From: an uncultured Chloroflexia bacterium
GTDB taxonomy: Bacteria > Chloroflexota > Anaerolineae > CG2-30-64-16
Assembly (NCBI GenBank): GCA_963810095.1
Contig: CAWEMM010000012.1
Span: 608,001-672,000 of the forward strand
Reading direction: 5' to 3'
Length of the DNA stretch: 64,000 nucleotides
The notes beneath the pieces were generated by a model, which was not told the DNA's origin, did not search any database, and worked only from the letters and a program-made list of their open reading frames with translations. Positions 44,423-53,171 of the stretch are shown one piece after another (within the stretch, counting starts at the first letter, position 1; every line of letters begins with the position of its first letter). Made by a program: the position numbers and the translations under genes.

Positions 44423-47400
44423 ATGGACATGTCCCGTATTTCGCAAGGCACGCACGCGCGGTCCTTCCGGCGCTTGCTCAGTCTCGTCTTCATTTTGGCG
44501 CTGGTCCTCGCAAGCTTCGGCAGCGTGGCCGCCCAGCCCGCCGTTCAAGCCGAGCCGCCGGCCGTGCTCCCCGACCCGTACGACCTCTGGTCCGGCCAGA
44601 TCCTCGACTTCGTCCCGCCCACCACGAGCGGCATCAACCTCATCCAGCCCGACGGAACGTCCGTCGCAGCACGCCTTACCCCTGCCGAAACCGGCGCGCG
44701 TCTCGAGACGACGGCGGGCTACACCCTTCTCCAGGACGCCGAACATTGGTGGACCTACGCCACCACCGACGCGAACGGCGCTCTCGTTGCGTCCGGCCTG
44801 CGCGCCGGCATCGATGCGCCCGAAGGGCTTGCTCAGAAGCTCGGCCAGACCGAGTCGATCTGGCTGGACGCGGAGGGCAACGACACCCGTACGCCCGTGT
44901 TCGAGGCCGTCAAGGAGGCCCAGTCGCCCAACGCGTCTGCGTTTACCCAGGGGGACCTCGCCGTCAAGCATTACAAGTACCTGATGATCCTGGCCGAGTT
45001 CCAGGATGTGAAGCTTCAACCCGGGTCCACGCCTCAGTTTATCCAGGACCAGATTTCCGGCCTCGGCACCAGCCCCACCGGCACGGTAACTGACCTCTAC
45101 TACGAAATGTCCTACGGCCAGTTCGAGCCGGAGTTCGACGTCATCGGCCCGCTGACCTTGCCCTACGACATGGTCAAATACGATTACCAACTTCCCGGCG
45201 GGCGCAGCGTCACCAGCATGATCACCGACCTCGGCCCCCAACTCCAGGCGATGGGTATCGACTGGGAACAGTACGACAACGATAAGGTTGTCTACACCTC
45301 GGGCGGCGTGCAGTACCGCTCGGTCGACATGACCGTCGTGCTCCATGCCGGCCCCGGCAAGGAGGCCACCGGCCAGGACGGCCAGGTGTGGTCGCACGCG
45401 TCGACAGCCAATTACCGCACCGGCTTCTACGGCGCGGACGGCAAGGAAATCCGCATCCGCGGCTGCAACACCGTGCCCGAGATCGGCTTCAACATCGGCG
45501 TCGTCGCGCACGAGATGGGCCACACTATTGGCGAGTCCGATTACTACGACACCAGCTACCGCTCCATGGGCACCGGCGACTGGGATCTCATGGCCGGCGG
45601 CTCCTGGATGGGCAACACGCCCGCCGGGTCCAACCCCTCGGTCATGAACCCGCTGAGCCGCATCAACCAGGGCTGGCTGCAGCCGGAGGTCGTTACGGCC
45701 ACCCGCCTGGGCGTCGAGCTCAAGCCCCGCACGGTGGCGGGCAACGTGATCAAGATCCCGCTCGGCGGCACGGCCACCAGCGGCTCGACCAACGTGCAGG
45801 AGGACCTCTACGTCGAAATGGTCTCCAACCGCGTTGCGGGGACGATCTTCGACAAGGCCGAGTACGGCACGGGCCTGCTGATCTGGCACTACGACCGAGG
45901 CGGCAGCCAGACGAAGCCGAGCAGTGCGCCGGCGCGCTACCGCATGGGCGTGCTCGAGTACGACTTCCGTGACGGCACGCAGGAACTGCCCACGAACCAG
46001 AACCGCGGCGAGCCGACCGATCCGTGGTCAGACACCGCCCTCGGCATCACCCCGTATACGGCCCCGAACACCAGTCGCAACACGCCGCTCGTGGCCGGCG
46101 GTGCCAAGGAAACGGGTTGGTACCTGATGAACATCTCGCCGGTGGGCGACACGATGACGTTCGACATCGTGCAGCAGGCCGACGTGCAAGCAAAGGTCGG
46201 CGTGGACCGGCCGAGCCTGGTCAGCCAGCCCGCCATCCTGGGCGCGGCGCCGTGCAGATCAGCACGAAGGTCTACAACCTGACGGCCGCGCCGCTGGCCG
46301 ACGTAAGCGTCGAGTTCTGGGCGACGATGGGCGCCGACAAGGTGAAGCTGGCCGAGACCGTGCTGGCGACGCTGGCGCCCGGTGCGCCGGCGGTGGCCAC
46401 TGCGACGTGGGACGCGCCGGTGGCGGGCAAGCTCAACATCGAGGCCGTCGTCACCGCAGGCGACGCATCGGCGAGTGCGCCGGGCGTCGTGCGGGTGTTT
46501 GCCCGCAATGCGCCGGTGCTGCTCGTGGACGACGACGACGGCTACACGGCGGAAGAGGCATTCGAGGGCGCACTGGTGTCGCTCGGCGTTCCCTACGTGG
46601 TCGTCGAGAAGACCGCACCGCTCGCCCTGATGCAGCAGTACGACCTGGTGGTCTGGTCGGCCGGCCAGGCGGGCCGCCTCGAGGGTCAGCTCAACAAGAC
46701 CGAGATCGCGGACCTGAAGGCGCTGCTCAATGCCGGCGGCAAGGTGTGGTTCTCGAGCCCACGGCTGGCCGGCGCGCTGGACGCCAGCTCGCCCGGTCCG
46801 GTGGACGCGGCCTTCCTGAACGACTATCTGGGCGCGACGTACCCGATGTCGAACCAGGCGGGCGGCGGCTTGATTACCGGCACCGGCCAGTACATCGGCG
46901 GCACCGGCTCCTACCAGTTGCGCGCGTTCCCCGGCCGCTCGATCGAGGACTTCCTCGATCCGGCCGTGAGCCCCATCGCCTCGAGCACGATGCTCTTTAC
47001 CTGGGATGCGGGGCATCACCTGGGCACCGAGGTAATCGGGGATGCAGCCCACAACAACTTCCACGTCGTCTACTTCGGCTTCAATATGTCGCAGGTGGTT
47101 GCGCCCGAGGACCGCATGCTGCTGACTCAGCAGGTGCTGGACCGCATGGGCATCGCTAATGCGTACTTCGAGAAGACGACCTACTTTGTACCTACGACCG
47201 GCTCGGTCCGCCTGCTCGTGCACGACATGGTGACCCCGCTGACGCAGGTGCGGGTGACCAGCCAGGCCCAGCCGGGCGGCGTGTTGGTTAATGTCCGGCC
47301 GACCGCATACCCCGGCACCTACACCGGCGTGTTGACCGTGCGTGTGAACGGCATGACGCGCGGCACCCTGAAGGTGAACCCGGTCGACGAGATTCGGGTC

Positions 47401-47796
47401 ACGTACGTGGACGCGGCGGGTGGCGAAATCTGGGGCACGGCGGCCACGGTGCAGCGCCCGGCCGACGAGCTGCCCGCGACCATCTACCACGACGTGATCG
47501 ACAACGCGTTCGATGCGAAGGCGCTGCCGGTCATGGTCATCGCGACCGACGACATCCGCGTCGAAAACGTGGTCCTGTACTACCGCTACGCGGGAACGGG
47601 CGCATGGCAGAAGGCCCCGATGGGGGAAACCTACCGCTTCGCGTTCACGGCGACCATCCCGGCGTCCTCCGTGACGCCGGCGGGCGTGGAGTACTACGTC
47701 ACTGCCACCGACATCCGCGGCCACGTCACCAGCGTGGGCTCGGCCGCCGCACCGAAATTCGTCGTCGTCCAGCCCCGCACCGTCGGGCTGGAGTAG
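44423..47796 (+). CDS. Secreted M6-family (immune inhibitor A-like) metalloprotease with C-terminal Ig-like domains (frameshift near 46250)
   Basis: Signal peptide, VLHAGPG, VWSH, VVAHEMGH zinc motif, WDLMAGGSW, GLLIWH. Confidence 0.88.
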
Positions 47797-47807
47797 GACG
47801 CGACTGG

Positions 47808-47904
47808 GAATGGAACACAGATTGGATTGATTGAACTGATTTGCCTGATGTTCTCCTATAAGATCAGGTAAATCGGCCAGATCAGTCCAATCAGCGTCCC
47901 ATTC
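47808..47904. repeat. Palindromic repeat, family B
   Basis: gaatggaacacagattggattgattgaactgat...atcagtccaatcagcgtcccattc. Confidence 0.75.
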
Positions 47905-49348
47905 TTACCGTACTAATGTAAACGCAAACGCGCCGGCGTGGGCCGACGTTTTGGACTGGAGCCCGGACTGGGCGACGCTGCGGACGCCGTAGAAGACGGG
48001 CGCACCGGGCGCGGCCAGGACTCCATCCAGCACGTTGGTCCCGCCGGTCGTGGTCACCGGCACCGCACCGGCATCCCAGGGCCGGAAGTACGGCTGGGTG
48101 CCCCGCCACACCTGGTAACTCGCCACCGCCACCGTCTCGCCTCCCTCGTCCTTCGTCACCGCGCCCCAGCTCAGGCGGTTTCCACCCGCCTCCAGCCCGA
48201 TAGTCACGGTGGGACTTTGCGGCAGCCTCGGCGTCCGCGAGCACGTTGCGGTTCTGGTCCACCGCCCACATCCGGCCCTGGATGGCAGCCATGCCCCATG
48301 GCAGCGACGGGGTTGCGCCCACCTTTGGCAGCGCATAGCGTATGACCCCGGCCTGCCCCGTTCCCGCAGTCCATGTCACGGCGCCGAAACTCAGCGTCCC
48401 CGTCTGCACGGTCACGCCGGCCTGCACCGTGCCCGCACCGAGCGTTGGGCAGGTGCCTGGCGCGACGTTCGAGGTCGATACGCCGAGCGTTTGGCTGGAG
48501 CCGCCCGCCAGCGCAGGGTCGACGAAGCCGGCGTACCCCCCGCCATCCGTGTACCACATGACCTCGGTTCCCGCGGCGAGCATGACCGGCTGCGAGCCTG
48601 CGGGCAAGGTTACGATGACGGCCTGGTTGGCGGCCGGCGTCAATCGTCCGATAATGCCTGCGCCAGAGTCGGCCCACCACACCCGGCCGTCGGAGTCCAG
48701 CGCCAGCCCTTCCGGCGTCTGCCAGCCGGCCGGCAGCGTCCACGCCGACAGTTGGTTGTTCGACGCGTCGAAGCGCAGCAGGCGGCCGGTCTGTTGGTCG
48801 GTCAGCCACAGCTGATTGCCCCGGCTGATCAAGTAGTTGCCCCCGCCGCCGACCGTGAACGGGCACAGGCTGCGGTCGGAGGGGGTGAAACGGATCAGCT
48901 GCGTCTTATTGGGCTGGCTGAACCAGATGCGCCCGGACCCGTCGAAGGCAAAGCCGCCGGGATTAAGGCCCTTGGACGCGAGATCCCAGTACTCAGCCTG
49001 AAGCGGCCCGAACGTCAGCTTGCCGAAGGCCGTGCCGAAGTCGCTCCACCACACCTCGCCGGCCGGTCCGGGTTTGGCATCGCCCGGTTGGATGAGAAAG
49101 CCCGCGCCGGTGGAGAATACGTAGCGCGAGTACTGTCCGCCGGCCGCGTCGACTTTGAGGATCGCCGGCGCGGTGTAATCGCTGGCGTAGAGGTAACCGG
49201 ACGAGTCCGGGTTAAGCTCGACGAGCGAGCTGCCGCTGATTCCGGCGGCGGCTTCTCCCACCGTAATGTCGGCTTGCACCGGCGGGTGGGAGAGCAGCAC
49301 CAGCCCGACTGCACAGAGAAACGCGAGTAGATGACGAAGCGAGTGCAT
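47905..49348 (-). CDS. Secreted Vgb/NHL-like beta-propeller protein (frameshift near 48240)
   Basis: Signal peptide; repeated P.G.A.D..GR.W blades. Confidence 0.7.
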
Positions 49349-49512
49349 GAGTGGCTCCTGGCAGAGAATAGGCTCGCGAAGGTTACACGGCGAGAGCGTG
49401 GCGACCGAAGATGTGGGTCCGATGATACCCTGTTCTCGGGTTGGGGTCAACGGCGCGCCGGCGGTGGATTGCGGGCAGGTGTGGCGGAATGCACACACGG
49501 CTGCGCGACGTA

Positions 49513-49541
49513 TTGAAGAACTGCGCCAAGTGTGGTAGACT
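49513..49541 (+). promoter_or_regulatory. tRNA promoter
   Basis: TTGAAG-17nt-TAGACT with extended TG. Confidence 0.6.
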
Positions 49542-49556
49542 CACTTCTGAAGTGAA

Positions 49557-49929
49557 GGGCCCCTAGCTCAGCGGTTAGAGCGGCCGGCTCGTGACGGACA
49601 AGTCTATCCGTCAAGGGCTGCCCGGCGGGTAACTGCCGGGTGACACCCTGCCAAATTCGGGGAAGCCTACGCCACAGACGGCATGGTAATCCCGAGCCAA
49701 GCCCCGCGTAAGCGGGGAAGGTGTAGAGACTAGACGGCGGGCGCCCGACGGGGGAGCAGCATGCTCGACCTGCGAAGGTCGGTCCCCACAGGGTGAAGGG
49801 ATAGTCCAGCCCACAAACCCGTCTCCGGTGCAGACTGGCGCAGCCGGTGTGGCCGGGGGTCGCGGGGCGGCGAAAGCCGCAGTGGGAGGCATAACCGGTT
49901 GGTCCTCGGTTCGAATCCGGGGGGGCCCA
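49557..49929 (+). tRNA. tRNA-Ile2(CAT), exons 49557-49589 and 49890-49929, interrupted by an intron; CCA not encoded
   Basis: Spliced sequence GGGCCCC-TA-GCTCAGCGGTTAGAGC-G-GCCGG-CTCATAA-CCGGT-TGGTC-CTCGGTTCGAATCCGGG-GGGGCCC-A forms a full cloverleaf; C4-G69 and C5-G68 favour Ile2 over Met. Confidence 0.88.
49590..49889 (+). ncRNA. Group I self-splicing intron (300 nt, no homing endonuclease ORF seen)
   Basis: Core P/Q/R/S elements AAATTCGGGGAA, AATCCCGAGCC, GTAGAGACTAGACGG and AAGGGATAGTCC; exon U pairs with guide-sequence G; terminal G. Confidence 0.92.
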
Positions 49930-49952: not shown

Positions 49953-49989
49953 AGCGAGCGGCTTCTTGATAACCAGGAAGCCGCTCGCT
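49953..49989. terminator. Hairpin between the convergent tRNA and small ORF
   Basis: agcgagcggcttcttg / caggaagccgctcgct stem. Confidence 0.6.
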
Positions 49990-50469: not shown

Positions 50470-53171
50470 TTAGCTCGCCCCCATCTGGATCAGCCCCCTG
50501 GCGATGGCCCAAGTCGCAATTTGCGTCCGGGAGGTGAGCTCCAGCTTGGAGAGGATGTTGCCGATGTGGGCCTCGACTGTCCGCTCGCTGACTACAAGGA
50601 CCTCCGCAATGCGGCGGTTGGACTTGCCCTGCGCCACCAGCGCGGCCACCTCGCGCTCACGGGCGGTCAGGCCGCCCCATTGCGCCTTAGGCGTGCGGGG
50701 CGGCGCCGGTGCTCGGGCTCCAGCGGGAGGCTTTGGGCCCCGGCTGGCCCCCGGCTGCGGCTCATCCGGCATGGCTGCGATGGCATCGAGGGGCTCCTGG
50801 GCGCGCCCCAAAGCCCACTCCGCAGCGAGTGTGGCCGGATCGAGCGCCGCATTCACCGCCTTGAGCGCGCGCTCGTAGTCTGGCAGGTAGATCCATGCCC
50901 GTTGGACGCCCGTTCTCTCCAGCCTGGCTTCGGCGACCCCCATTAGCTGAGCGGCCCGCCTCGGTTCGCCTCGGATGCAGCTCATTTCTGCCAGTCCCGT
51001 GAGACAGGCGACGACACCTGGGTTGTCATCCAGGTCGGAATACTCCCTCGCTGCGCGACCGAACAGCCTGGCGGCCTCCTGAGTCTCGCCGCGCGCCAGG
51101 GCCAAACACCCAGCCTCGGCCATCTGATTGGTCGTTCGCTGGCCGATCTTGCCGAACAGGGCGATTGCTTCGTCCTGGTAGGCTTGCGCGTGGTTCAGAT
51201 CGCCTTCGAGCCTCATCACGTGGCCGAGCTCAGCTCGTGTGAAGGCAATCCCCGGCGAGAAACCAAGCTTCTCGTCAGCGGCAAGAGCCTCCTCATATAG
51301 TCGCCGCGCCAAGGCATAATCGCGTTCGCAAAAGGCAACCCGCGCAGCCGTGGCGAGTATCCGGGCCGCGCCCCAAATATCGCCCTTCGTCCGAAATATC
51401 GCCAGGCCCTGGTCAAGCAAACTGCGAGCCGTGCCCCAATCCTCGTTCATCATCGCGGTCGTGCCTAACTCCCGCAGCACGTACGCGACGCCGAGCAGAT
51501 TGTCGGTCTGACGGCACAGCGCAAGGCTCTCCTCCAGCAACGGTCGCGCTGCGCCGCCGTAGCCGTATGAAGACTGCATGTTGCCCGCAAGGCGCAAAGA
51601 CTCGGCCAGCACCGACCGGCTCTCTAATCCCAGGGCTCGACCGATCGAGATGCTCTCATTGCAAGCGGCCCATGCCCGAGCCATATCGTCGAACATCCAG
51701 GCAAACCTGGCCTCGTTCGCCAGCGCGCACGCGTGTTCCGGACTGGGCTTCTGAGCGAGGGACAGCCCGAGCACCTTCTGCAACCACATGCGACCCTCAT
51801 TGAGATGGCTGCGAATGCGCCAGAAGGGTTCGAGAAGATTGACCAGTCGCAAGGCATCGTGTGCAGCACGGGCGCCAATCGCTTCGTCAGTGGCGCCCTC
51901 GGCCTGGCCGATCACCCAACTTAACGCCTCTCGGAAGTTGTCATGCTCCGCGTCCAGCCGGTCGAGCCAGCCGATTGCGTTGACCCCGTGCAGCTCCGGC
52001 TCAGCCTGCTCGGCCACCCGCAGATAGAAGGCAACATGGCGGTTATACAGGCTTCCTGCCTCACCGGCTTCGCGGAGGCGTTCGCCCGCATACTGCCGGA
52101 TCGTTTCGAGCAGGAGATAGCGGGTCTCCTGGCTGCGTTGATGAACAACGCTCAAGACCACCGATTTATCCACCAGGCGCGAAACGAGGTCCAGGATCGC
52201 GCTTCCGCTGAGTGAGTCGTCACCACAGACGGCTTCGACGGCTGCCAGGTTGCTGCCGCCGGCGAAAACCGCAAGTCGGCGGAAGAGGATCTGCTCGCCC
52301 GCCGAGAGCAGCGCGTGACTCCAGTCGATTACTGACGCGAGCGTCTGGTGTCGGGCGGCGCGCTGCGCAGGTTCGTGCGAAGGAGACCGAGACTGTCAGC
52401 TAATCGGCCGGCCATTTGCTCGGCCGTCAGCACGCCAACCCGCGCAGCAGCCAGCTCGATGGCGAGCGGCATGCCGTCCAGGTGCCGGCAGATCTGCGCG
52501 ATCGGCTGCGCGTTGCCGGGCTGCAGCGCAAAACCGGGGGCTGCGGCCTGAGCCCGCTCGACAAACAAACGCACCGCCTCGGACTGCGCGACGTCGGCCA
52601 TGTCCGCAGCAGCGGACACGTCTGCAGCAGGCGACTCGACCGGGGGCAGCGAGAGCGACGGCACGCGCCAGGCGACTTCACCCGGAACGCCGAGAGGCTC
52701 GCGACTGGTCGCCACGATCCGCAGGTCCAGGCAGCACCGGTGGAGCAGTTGTTCGACCAACTGCGCGCAAGCGGCGACAAGATGTTCGCAGTTGTCAAGG
52801 ACCAGCAGGAGATCGCGCCCTTCCAGGAAGGCGACAAGGGTATCGATCAGCGAGCCGGTTCGGTCAACGATACCCAGAGCTTCCGCGACCACCGCGGGCA
52901 CGAGCGCTTCGTCTGTGAGGGGGGCAAGCTCGACCACCCACGTCCCGTCTTCGAACTCGGGGAGGACCCGCCGAGCGAGTTCGAGCGCGAGTCGCGTCTT
53001 GCCTGCGCCACCGGAGCCGGTCAGCGTCACCAGGCGGCTCGTTAGCACGAGGGGTTCAAGCTGCGCGAGTTCACGCTCGCGGCCGACGAGGCTCGTTAGC
53101 GCGAGCGGCAGGTTGGTCGGGGTATGGGGCAATACGAACGTTGTTTGTGCGTTGGTTGTGACTTGGCGCAT
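50470..53171 (-). CDS. NB-ARC/STAND ATPase-TPR-LuxR transcriptional regulator (frameshift near 52330)
   Basis: LVGRERE, GSGGAGKTRL, LVLDNCEHL, LDGMPLAIELAA, TPR repeats, LTAREREVAALVAQGKSN helix-turn-helix. Confidence 0.9.

Follow-up and report, generated by a model that had tools for sequence, protein, structure and literature searches.

The 64,000-nt stretch of DNA analysed here (hereafter the window: positions 608,001 to 672,000 of contig CAWEMM010000012.1, assembly GCA_963810095.1, from an uncultured bacterium of the Chloroflexota) carries at 49557-49929, on the plus strand, a tRNA gene with a CAU anticodon. The gene lies in two pieces, separated by a 300-nt insert that has the features of a group I intron:

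49557-49589, plus strand: tRNA 5' exon, 33 nt, tRNA positions 1-33, ending GCCGGCT
49590-49889, plus strand: group I intron, 300 nt, first base C, terminal G at 49889
49890-49929, plus strand: tRNA 3' exon, 40 nt, starting CATAACCGGT

The 5' exon provides the acceptor 5' strand, the D arm, the 5' strand of the anticodon stem, C32 and U33. The 3' exon opens with the anticodon C34-A35-U36 and provides the remainder of the anticodon arm, followed by the variable loop, T arm, acceptor 3' strand and discriminator A73; CCA is not encoded. Once joined, the exons form a standard 73-nt cloverleaf with anticodon CAT, as scored by ARAGORN. At its default settings, ARAGORN detects not a single tRNA in the 64-kb window, and Rfam at its gathering scores reports neither a tRNA nor an intron. 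The initial annotation, made from the letters of the window, had anticipated that standard annotation could miss the gene, as well as the 300-nt spacing of its halves and an insertion between positions 33 and 34, and all of this was borne out.

The exon boundaries were set by intronless alleles from related genomes. The 11 alleles that were fetched equal exon 1 plus exon 2 exactly, giving ...GGCU/CAUAACC... as the splice product. Exon 1 is identical or nearly so in 17 intron-bearing and 11 intronless orthologues, and both window exons are 95-100% identical to those of the intronless alleles. The intron and exon 2 both start with C, which leaves a one-base ambiguity with the same product either way; 33/34 is the sole placement that gives a U at position -1 together with a G at the intron end. 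The resulting configuration (CU/intron...G/CAUAA, U at -1, G at the intron 3' end) corresponds to the position class '.2Ug' of Williams 2020 (bioRxiv 10.1101/2020.01.27.920355).

The insert was matched by the Rfam group I model RF00028 (Intron_gpI) over the full model, 1-253, at 49598-49824, with 45.0 bits (E 3e-10 for the 601 nt searched). When the whole genome was searched (6.13 Mb in 16 contigs, 88.5% complete), this was the sole match, with an E value of 7.2e-10. Helices were mapped by hand and base pairs then checked, for 66 pairs in 13 helices. The elements of the fold are:

49585-49590 with 49615-49620, plus strand: P1, exon CGGCU and intron C1 paired with guide GGGCUG
49592-49598 with 49607-49613, plus strand: P1 inner extension hairpin, 7 bp
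49621-49628 with 49633-49640, plus strand: P2, 8 bp, GUAA tetraloop
49647-49652 with 49736-49741, plus strand: P3, CCUGCC with GGCGGG, enclosing the P4-P6 domain
49657-49662 with 49690-49695, plus strand: P4
49665-49667 with 49685-49687, plus strand: P5, including a CCUACG/CAUGG internal loop
49671-49673 with 49680-49682, plus strand: P5a
49696-49698 with 49720-49722, plus strand: P6
49702-49707 with 49712-49717, plus strand: P6a, GUAA loop
G49726 and 49728-49732 with 49802-49807, plus strand: P7 pseudoknot, GACUA/UAGUC, A49727 bulged
49742-49746 with 49791-49795, plus strand: P8 base, 5 bp, with two further hairpins inside a lineage-specific expansion
49810-49814 with 49882-49886, plus strand: P9, closing a three-way junction (49810-49886)
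49818-49821 with 49863-49866, plus strand: base of P9a, expanded
49867-49871 with 49876-49880, plus strand: P9b, GAAA tetraloop

P9 is followed by AGG and then by the terminal G (49889). U33 forms the wobble pair U49589.G49616 at the 5' splice site. P7 encloses both the 3' strand of P3 and P8, and the helix at 49726-49807 is presumably the guanosine-binding one, as expected of group I introns. We take the internal loop of P5 to resemble the 11-nt tetraloop receptor. The named helices (P1, P2, P3, P7 and the P9 hairpin) and the terminal G are thus all present as first described, and the proposed enlargement of P8 and P9 is confirmed by comparison with the 206-237-nt introns of relatives, which do not have the P8 expansion. 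By its architecture alone, with no P5abc, GNRA loops on P2 and P9 and a receptor-like loop in P5, the intron compares with subgroup IC3. It contains no open reading frame (ORF).

The fold was examined in a MAFFT alignment (453 columns) of 20 introns from Ile2-type hosts, to which the counts in this paragraph refer. Base pairs are possible in 96.9% of 1304 cells, versus 32-47% after the partners have been shifted by 1-3 columns; since one of the aligned sequences served to derive the structure, this comparison in itself favours it over the shifted versions, whereas the compensatory counts are independent of that bias. Changes on both sides of a pair occur in 21 of the 66 pairs, and none of 500 shuffles matched the observed value on any of five measures. 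The U.G at the splice site is found in 20/20 introns. P1 is 99.2% paired; P2 is 99.4% paired, with both-side changes in six of its eight pairs; P3 is 100% paired, two pairs being altered on both sides; both-side changes affect 3/3 pairs of P5a and 3/5 of P6a. P7 is 100% paired in all 20 introns, with one pair altered on both sides in six sequences. The base of P8 is 94% paired (three pairs altered on both sides) and P9b 100% paired, with an A-U/G-C swap that splits the introns 10:10. In addition, the minimum free energy of 49582-49897 is -165.1 kcal/mol (z = -4.59; 0/100 shuffles as good), and the corresponding fold recovers all the non-pseudoknotted helices, namely P1, P2, P3, P4-P6, P8 and P9. 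The RF00028 match and the covariation across the 20 introns together support the proposed identification as a group I intron whose core is complete.

We then turn to the isotype of the host. Its acceptor pairs (GC, GC, GC, CG, CG, CG, CG), its identities to E. coli tRNAs, the other CAU tRNAs of the genome and the presence of tilS all make tRNA-Ile2(CAU), the host named in the initial annotation, the best reading, and one that we hold with high confidence on this comparative basis. The tRNA is not an initiator, because G1-C72 is paired and because its anticodon stem (G27.U43, C-G, C-G, G-C, G-C) is without three G-C pairs. C4:G69 and C5:G68 are both present; in the passage of PMC12514573 that deals with them, these are the dominant identity pairs for the E. 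coli TilS enzyme, with the reservation that TilS enzymes differ. ARAGORN reports 51 tRNAs in the genome, including two other CAT genes, both on contig C6. One (G000:C6:481049-481122), intronless, is initiator-like, with C1xA72 and a GGG/CCC stem. The other (G000:C6:480798-480871) is elongator-like, with acceptor GGCGACG, G4:C69 and A5:U68. The genome has two tRNA-Ile(GAT) genes and a regular tRNA-Thr(CGT), and no tRNA-Ile(UAU) occurs among its ARAGORN tRNAs. The search for an intronless Ile2 gene that had been suggested gave a single match in the window's own genome, with no second copy of the exons in the assembly. Compared with the three E. coli genes annotated by PGAP as tRNA-Ile(CAT), the spliced tRNA is identical at 61/71, 58/72 and 60/72 positions, versus 50/71 for metT/metU; for the other elongator CAU tRNA the relation is weakly reversed, with 56/70 to metT/U versus 50-56 of 71-72 to E. 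coli tRNA-Ile(CAT). An intronless orthologue searched by BLAST against E. coli genomes gave one match, a plasmid tRNA-Ile(CAT). The tilS gene is open (a 510-aa ORF matching TIGR02432 with 170 bits, above the cut-off, and containing PF01171 and TilS_C). ATA codons amount to 1.36 per 1000 and at least one is present in 911 of 2083 long ORFs, in a rough ORF set.

A candidate promoter lies just upstream of the gene:

49513-49541, plus strand: promoter-like element, TTGAAG (49513-49518), 17-nt spacer, TG-n-TAGACT (-10 at 49536-49541)

The tRNA 5' end lies 15 nt downstream of this element, which agrees with the consensus at 8/12 positions. In 7/7 loci of the same genus the TAnAnT box is invariant, as is the GA within the -35 box, although the rest of the upstream region is only 57% identical. 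The following scheme draws on the sequence, on comparison with relatives and on established group I and tRNA biology. Transcription would start from the conserved promoter-like element about 15 nt upstream. The intron would fold through P3-P9, and the guide GGGCUG would pair with exon CGGCU and intron C1, placing U33 in the U.G wobble. A free guanosine bound in P7 would attack after U33; the terminal G (49889) would then replace this guanosine, and the 3'-OH of U33 would attack before C34, so that the exons are joined. The tRNA would be completed by RNase P, 3' trimming and addition of CCA. Only after these steps could TilS convert C34 to lysidine, for AUA reading, and IleRS charge the tRNA. 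Since the assembly contains no other candidate for tRNA-Ile2, splicing would be required for decoding AUA.

Taken as a whole, the locus is very probably a tRNA-Ile2(CAU) gene of the Anaerolineales (Chloroflexota), split at U33/C34 by an ORF-less, IC3-like group I intron, and judging from sequence and comparison it is almost certainly a functional split gene, although splicing of the window copy is a step that we infer. Several observations weigh against this interpretation. The RF00028 score of 45 bits is lower than the gathering score of 50, so that by the rule of Rfam the intron is not a called member of the family. On inspection of the sequence, no convincing P10 joins the 3' exon to the guide region. 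Consensus scans called neither a promoter nor a terminator for the tRNA gene; in the case of the promoter-like element this is because an 8/12 match is below the threshold of the scanner. The assembly, 88.5% complete, could lack a second Ile2 gene, one without the intron. In metatranscriptomes, 24 runs contain 0.09-0.17 of the sampled words each, and contigs of four of them were compared. These contigs extend over the conserved core of the intron, in most cases with differences, and therefore come from relatives; the joint 49589>49890 is present in 2/4 runs (X3 and X10, one contig each), with 3-4 exon differences. Since their exons differ from those of the window, the contigs with this joint could derive from intronless relatives. 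Finally, the isotype is itself inferred, the nearest phage tRNAs are labelled tRNA-Met, and the other elongator CAU tRNA of the genome also matches, by BLAST, E. coli genes annotated as tRNA-Ile.

The last of these points bear on the best surviving alternative, in which the host would be the elongator tRNA-Met and the other elongator-like CAU tRNA (G000:C6:480798-480871) the Ile2 species. The match of the latter to E. coli tRNA-Ile genes, with which it shares the anticodon arm CUCAUAAUCGC, and the phage annotations would agree with such an exchange of roles, and ARAGORN labels any CAT tRNA as Met. However, C4:G69/C5:G68 are found in the window tRNA versus G4:C69/A5:U68 in the other, the global identities to E. 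coli tRNA-Ile(CAT) versus metT/U favour the window tRNA as Ile, and the phage CAT labels are default calls rather than isotype tests. We consider the exchange unlikely. Transfer of annotation by BLAST was tried as a means of assigning the isotype and set aside as not discriminating: both elongator CAU tRNAs match E. coli tRNA-Ile(CAT), and the phage labels say Met.

It could also be argued that the intron no longer splices and that the tRNA gene is dead, AUA being read by an unassembled gene or through some other route. The RNA contigs give no proof of splicing, the assembly is incomplete and two relatives (G018 and G001, see below) have apparently broken copies. Against this, 20 diverged introns, six of them from the same genus, preserve every core helix, the U.G and the terminal G, with compensatory changes, the exons retain their 95-100% identity to the intronless alleles, the promoter-like boxes are conserved, and an intact tilS would be left without a substrate; a dead gene is thus quite improbable. 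An equally low probability is given to a variant of the preferred reading, namely that splicing of this tRNA-Ile2 transcript gates AUA decoding, the intron not being a neutral passenger, and that the genus-specific expansions of P1, P8 and P9a could serve to bind a factor or to sense the level of guanosine or Mg.

ARAGORN run with long introns allowed, as had been recommended, does find the gene and forces the intron to 37/38 (tRNA-Thr (cgt) i(37,300)), but a tRNA-Thr(CGU) with an intron at this canonical position can be practically dismissed, because the 11 alleles without the intron consist of exon 1 joined directly to exon 2 and read ...GGCT CAT AACC..., the intron would end in U instead of G, and the regular tRNA-Thr(CGT) lies elsewhere in the genome.

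The distribution of the intron was determined by a DNA search of 60 genomes (36 of the same family, f1, and 24 of other families of the class), combined with mapping of the exons. In the family, the intron is present in 17 relatives and absent from 13; one is undecidable, the match lying at a contig end, and five gave no match. The 17 introns occupy the same site, measure 206-355 nt, and all start with C and end with G; the six copies from the same genus are 79-86% identical. Both states coexist within genus g8 (G026 versus G014) and within genus g15 (G030 and G035 versus G021). No intron was found in the 24 genomes from other families of the class, 14 of which gave abutting exon matches. Some of the relatives' intron cores are identical to ones in metagenome-assembled genomes of Anaerolineales/Anaerolineae, which places the window organism in the Anaerolineales, in agreement with the Chloroflexota origin suggested from the window alone.

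Three relatives' loci deserve separate mention. In G018 (L017:540-844, G018:C321), the intron and 3' exon directly follow a tRNA-Gly(TCC) gene, with no recognisable 5' exon; there is no exon-1 match elsewhere in this assembly, which is 97% complete, and a pseudogene, a rearrangement or a misassembly are all possible. G001, of the same genus as the window genome (L003:1834-1873), has one G fewer in the G run at the T-stem/acceptor junction of the 3' exon. The missing G would shorten a stem, and could reflect a homopolymer assembly error or a damaged gene. G029 (L037:297-617, G029:C60) has a related group I intron, scoring 48.9 bits with RF00028, and after it the apparent 3' half of a tRNA with a long variable arm, ending in CCA; no matching 5' half is present upstream, and the tRNA-Gly call of ARAGORN at this locus is not credible.

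We also scanned a species-level genome collection with a 26-letter pattern made of the last intron hairpin and the junction G/CATAAC. At least 118 loci were obtained, and both exons could be resolved in 108. The pattern fixes the 3' hairpin, so the scan is not an unbiased census, and the terminal G is present in the matches listed by design. Among the matches listed, the hosts of the 108 resolved loci are 79 initiator-like, 28 Ile2-like and one unclear. The initiator-like hosts come from Nitrospirota, Cyanobacteriota, Omnitrophota, Planctomycetota, phyla of the Candidate Phyla Radiation (CPR), Bacteroidota, Chloroflexota and others; the 26 Ile2-like loci with a phylum, again among the matches listed, comprise 22 from Chloroflexota, three from Bacillota and one from Saccharimonadota.

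A related intron of 264-279 nt is inserted at U33/C34 of the initiator tRNA-fMet in six of the relatives examined, G026, G005, G002, G030, G007 and G014 (loci L032-L035, L038 and L039, respectively). The genomes differ in having introns in both CAU tRNAs, in one, or in none. Both host sites share the 11-nt sequence GGCU/CAUAACC, and both introns use the guide GGGCUG. For a tree, 131 sequences were assembled (108 from the scan, plus 17 Ile2 introns and six fMet introns from the relatives); seven without the J3/4 anchor motif and four with cores of more than 340 nt were excluded and 10 duplicates merged, leaving 110 cores and 213 columns. All 35 Ile2-hosted (non-initiator CAU) introns fall on the same side of one branch (ultrafast bootstrap 84, Shimodaira-Hasegawa-like approximate likelihood ratio test (SH-aLRT) 91), a moderate support with a bootstrap that had not settled, and are separated from the fMet introns carried by the same genomes of the Anaerolineales. 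A single host change suffices in 80% of 200 bootstrap trees, versus 29.9 changes on average for shuffled labels. A quick tree set the long-branched Saccharimonadota row apart, and, with the remaining 34 taken as a single group, the approximately unbiased (AU) test gives no rejection (p 0.53). These results fit a single host switch, which may have taken place in either direction. That the Ile2 introns form one lineage, which would have jumped once from the fMet site to the identical 11-nt Ile2 site and acquired an antisense HNH gene (see below), is better supported than the gating of AUA decoding considered above.

Some of these introns carry endonuclease genes. Among the matches listed, 32 scan introns are of 480 nt or more, and 26 of them contain a sense ORF of at least 80 aa; five of these ORFs were checked against Pfam. 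Two, from fMet hosts, are PD-(D/E)XK endonucleases (PF11645, E 2.6e-51 and 4.9e-40), and three contain LAGLIDADG, in two fMet hosts and one Ile2 host (L149, sense). Six Ile2-type introns (L050, L087, L121, L139, L149 and L154) bear an ORF of about 124 aa, antisense to the tRNA and inside the P1 loop:

L050:4344-4718, plus strand: antisense HNH ORF
L087:4415-4786, plus strand: antisense HNH ORF
L121:1059-1430, minus strand: antisense HNH ORF, with a stop codon made up of the final base of the exon and the first two of the intron
L139:4711-5082, plus strand: antisense HNH ORF
L154:6847-7269, minus strand: antisense HNH ORF, whose frame continues into exon 1
L149: antisense HNH ORF, as a tblastn match

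With the exception of L154, these frames end at the 5' splice site. Three of them match HNH in PHROGs (phrog_2255, E 1e-20 to 4e-21); on the same three, Pfam HNH is sub-threshold at best, in two (19 versus 21.4 bits). L104 and L144 retain only fragments of the HNH gene. No trace of it was detected in the window intron by tblastn with the relatives' HNH proteins at E values up to 10, and the window copy is therefore not an endonuclease-bearing mobile group I intron. The intron lineage as a whole is mobile, since its presence varies within genera and some relatives have endonuclease genes, whereas the window copy, without a homing endonuclease, is presumably inherited vertically or lost precisely.

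The surroundings of the split gene are as follows:

47891-49498, minus strand: beta-propeller protein (Vgb_lyase/SGL)
49953-49989, no strand assigned: 13-bp GC-rich inverted repeat
50470-52173, minus strand: LuxR/TPR regulator

The tRNA gene thus stands alone on the plus strand between two minus-strand genes. The inverted repeat is located 24 nt downstream of the tRNA, before the convergent minus-strand ORF; it is not called as a terminator because it has no T run, and it gave a chance miRNA-like hairpin match in the Rfam scan. Elsewhere in the window, two ORFs of about 590 aa overlap on opposite strands (45937-47724, minus; 46024-47796, plus), neither with a Pfam match. Two further ARAGORN calls in the genome are odd, and likely false or unusual: an 84-nt tRNA with a four-base anticodon (taaa) at G000:C14:1962-2045 (minus strand) and an 87-nt 'tRNA-Thr(cgt)' with poor tRNA features at G000:C9:392495-392581 (plus strand).

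Four classical classes of bacterial tRNA introns, all assigned to IC3 in the intron database, are distinguished as Leu.3Ug, Arg.5Ug, fMet.2Ug and Ile2.5Ug by Williams 2020 (bioRxiv 10.1101/2020.01.27.920355), who numbered classes by position in the anticodon loop and listed 5292 intron-split tRNA genes in 21 classes, 17 of them new. The same author notes that none of the Rfam seed sequences is bacterial. The copies tested from relatives score 27-49 bits with RF00028 and, like the window intron, are below the gathering cut-off; default scans therefore report nothing, which argues for a bacterial tRNA-intron model like that of Williams. The AUA-tRNA gene is invisible to ARAGORN at defaults and at Rfam gathering scores here and in 17/36 relatives of the same family, so that such genomes will seem to be without tRNA-Ile2, and estimates of completeness or codon capacity will be off. 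A similar situation is described in the tRNAscan-SE 2.0 paper (PMC8450103), whose passage on the subject reports 36 genomes with an fMet or Ile2 gene 'missing' through group I introns and likewise invisible to standard tRNA finders; the Ile2 cases in that passage are from Acidovorax and Burkholderia, and it mentions neither an insertion site nor a case from the Chloroflexota.

Our literature search found no description of a Chloroflexota tRNA-Ile2 intron at 33/34, and 'Ile2.2Ug' does not occur in the main texts searched, the class names of Williams 2020 being in an image table outside the text. The view of the initial annotation that the combination might be rare and unreported nevertheless does not hold: 33/34 before CAU is the classical fMet.2Ug site, and hosts of the Ile2 type make up 28/108 of the resolved loci among the matches listed and occur in 17/36 relatives of the same family. 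The window intron is real and unannotated, but the kind of bacterial tRNA intron to which it belongs is widespread and has been described before, and what is known of the working of group I introns is unchanged by the finding.

The closest known counterpart is the cyanobacterial tRNA-fMet(CAU) intron (fMet.2Ug), with which the window intron shares the U33/C34 site after loop position 2, the U at -1, the terminal G, the 11-nt target GGCU/CAUAACC, the guide GGGCUG and an alignable core (about 75% identity to the fMet introns of relatives). It differs from it in its host, which is tRNA-Ile2 and not the initiator. The cargo differs too: long fMet copies carry a sense PD-(D/E)XK gene and long Ile2 copies an antisense HNH gene, whereas the window copy has neither. 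A Synechocystis copy of the tRNA-fMet intron is said, after Bonocora and Shub, to encode an endonuclease. The Azoarcus Ile2 intron (Ile2.5Ug) resembles the window intron in host isotype, in its small architecture without P5abc and in the GNRA loops on P2 and P9, and the J6/7-P7-P3 stretch is, we presume, strongly alike in the two. The location of the Azoarcus intron 3' of the anticodon, already pointed out for comparison, agrees with its class in Williams 2020: it is inserted after the anticodon (36/37), and its P1 contains CAU, whereas the window intron precedes the anticodon and its P1 contains CGGCU. The window intron has in addition extra hairpins in P1, P8 and P9 and a total of 300 nt. 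The Azoarcus intron is, as we take it, of about 205 nt. The introns described here provide a clean example of one intron lineage present in two tRNAs that share an 11-nt target, with differing endonuclease cargo.

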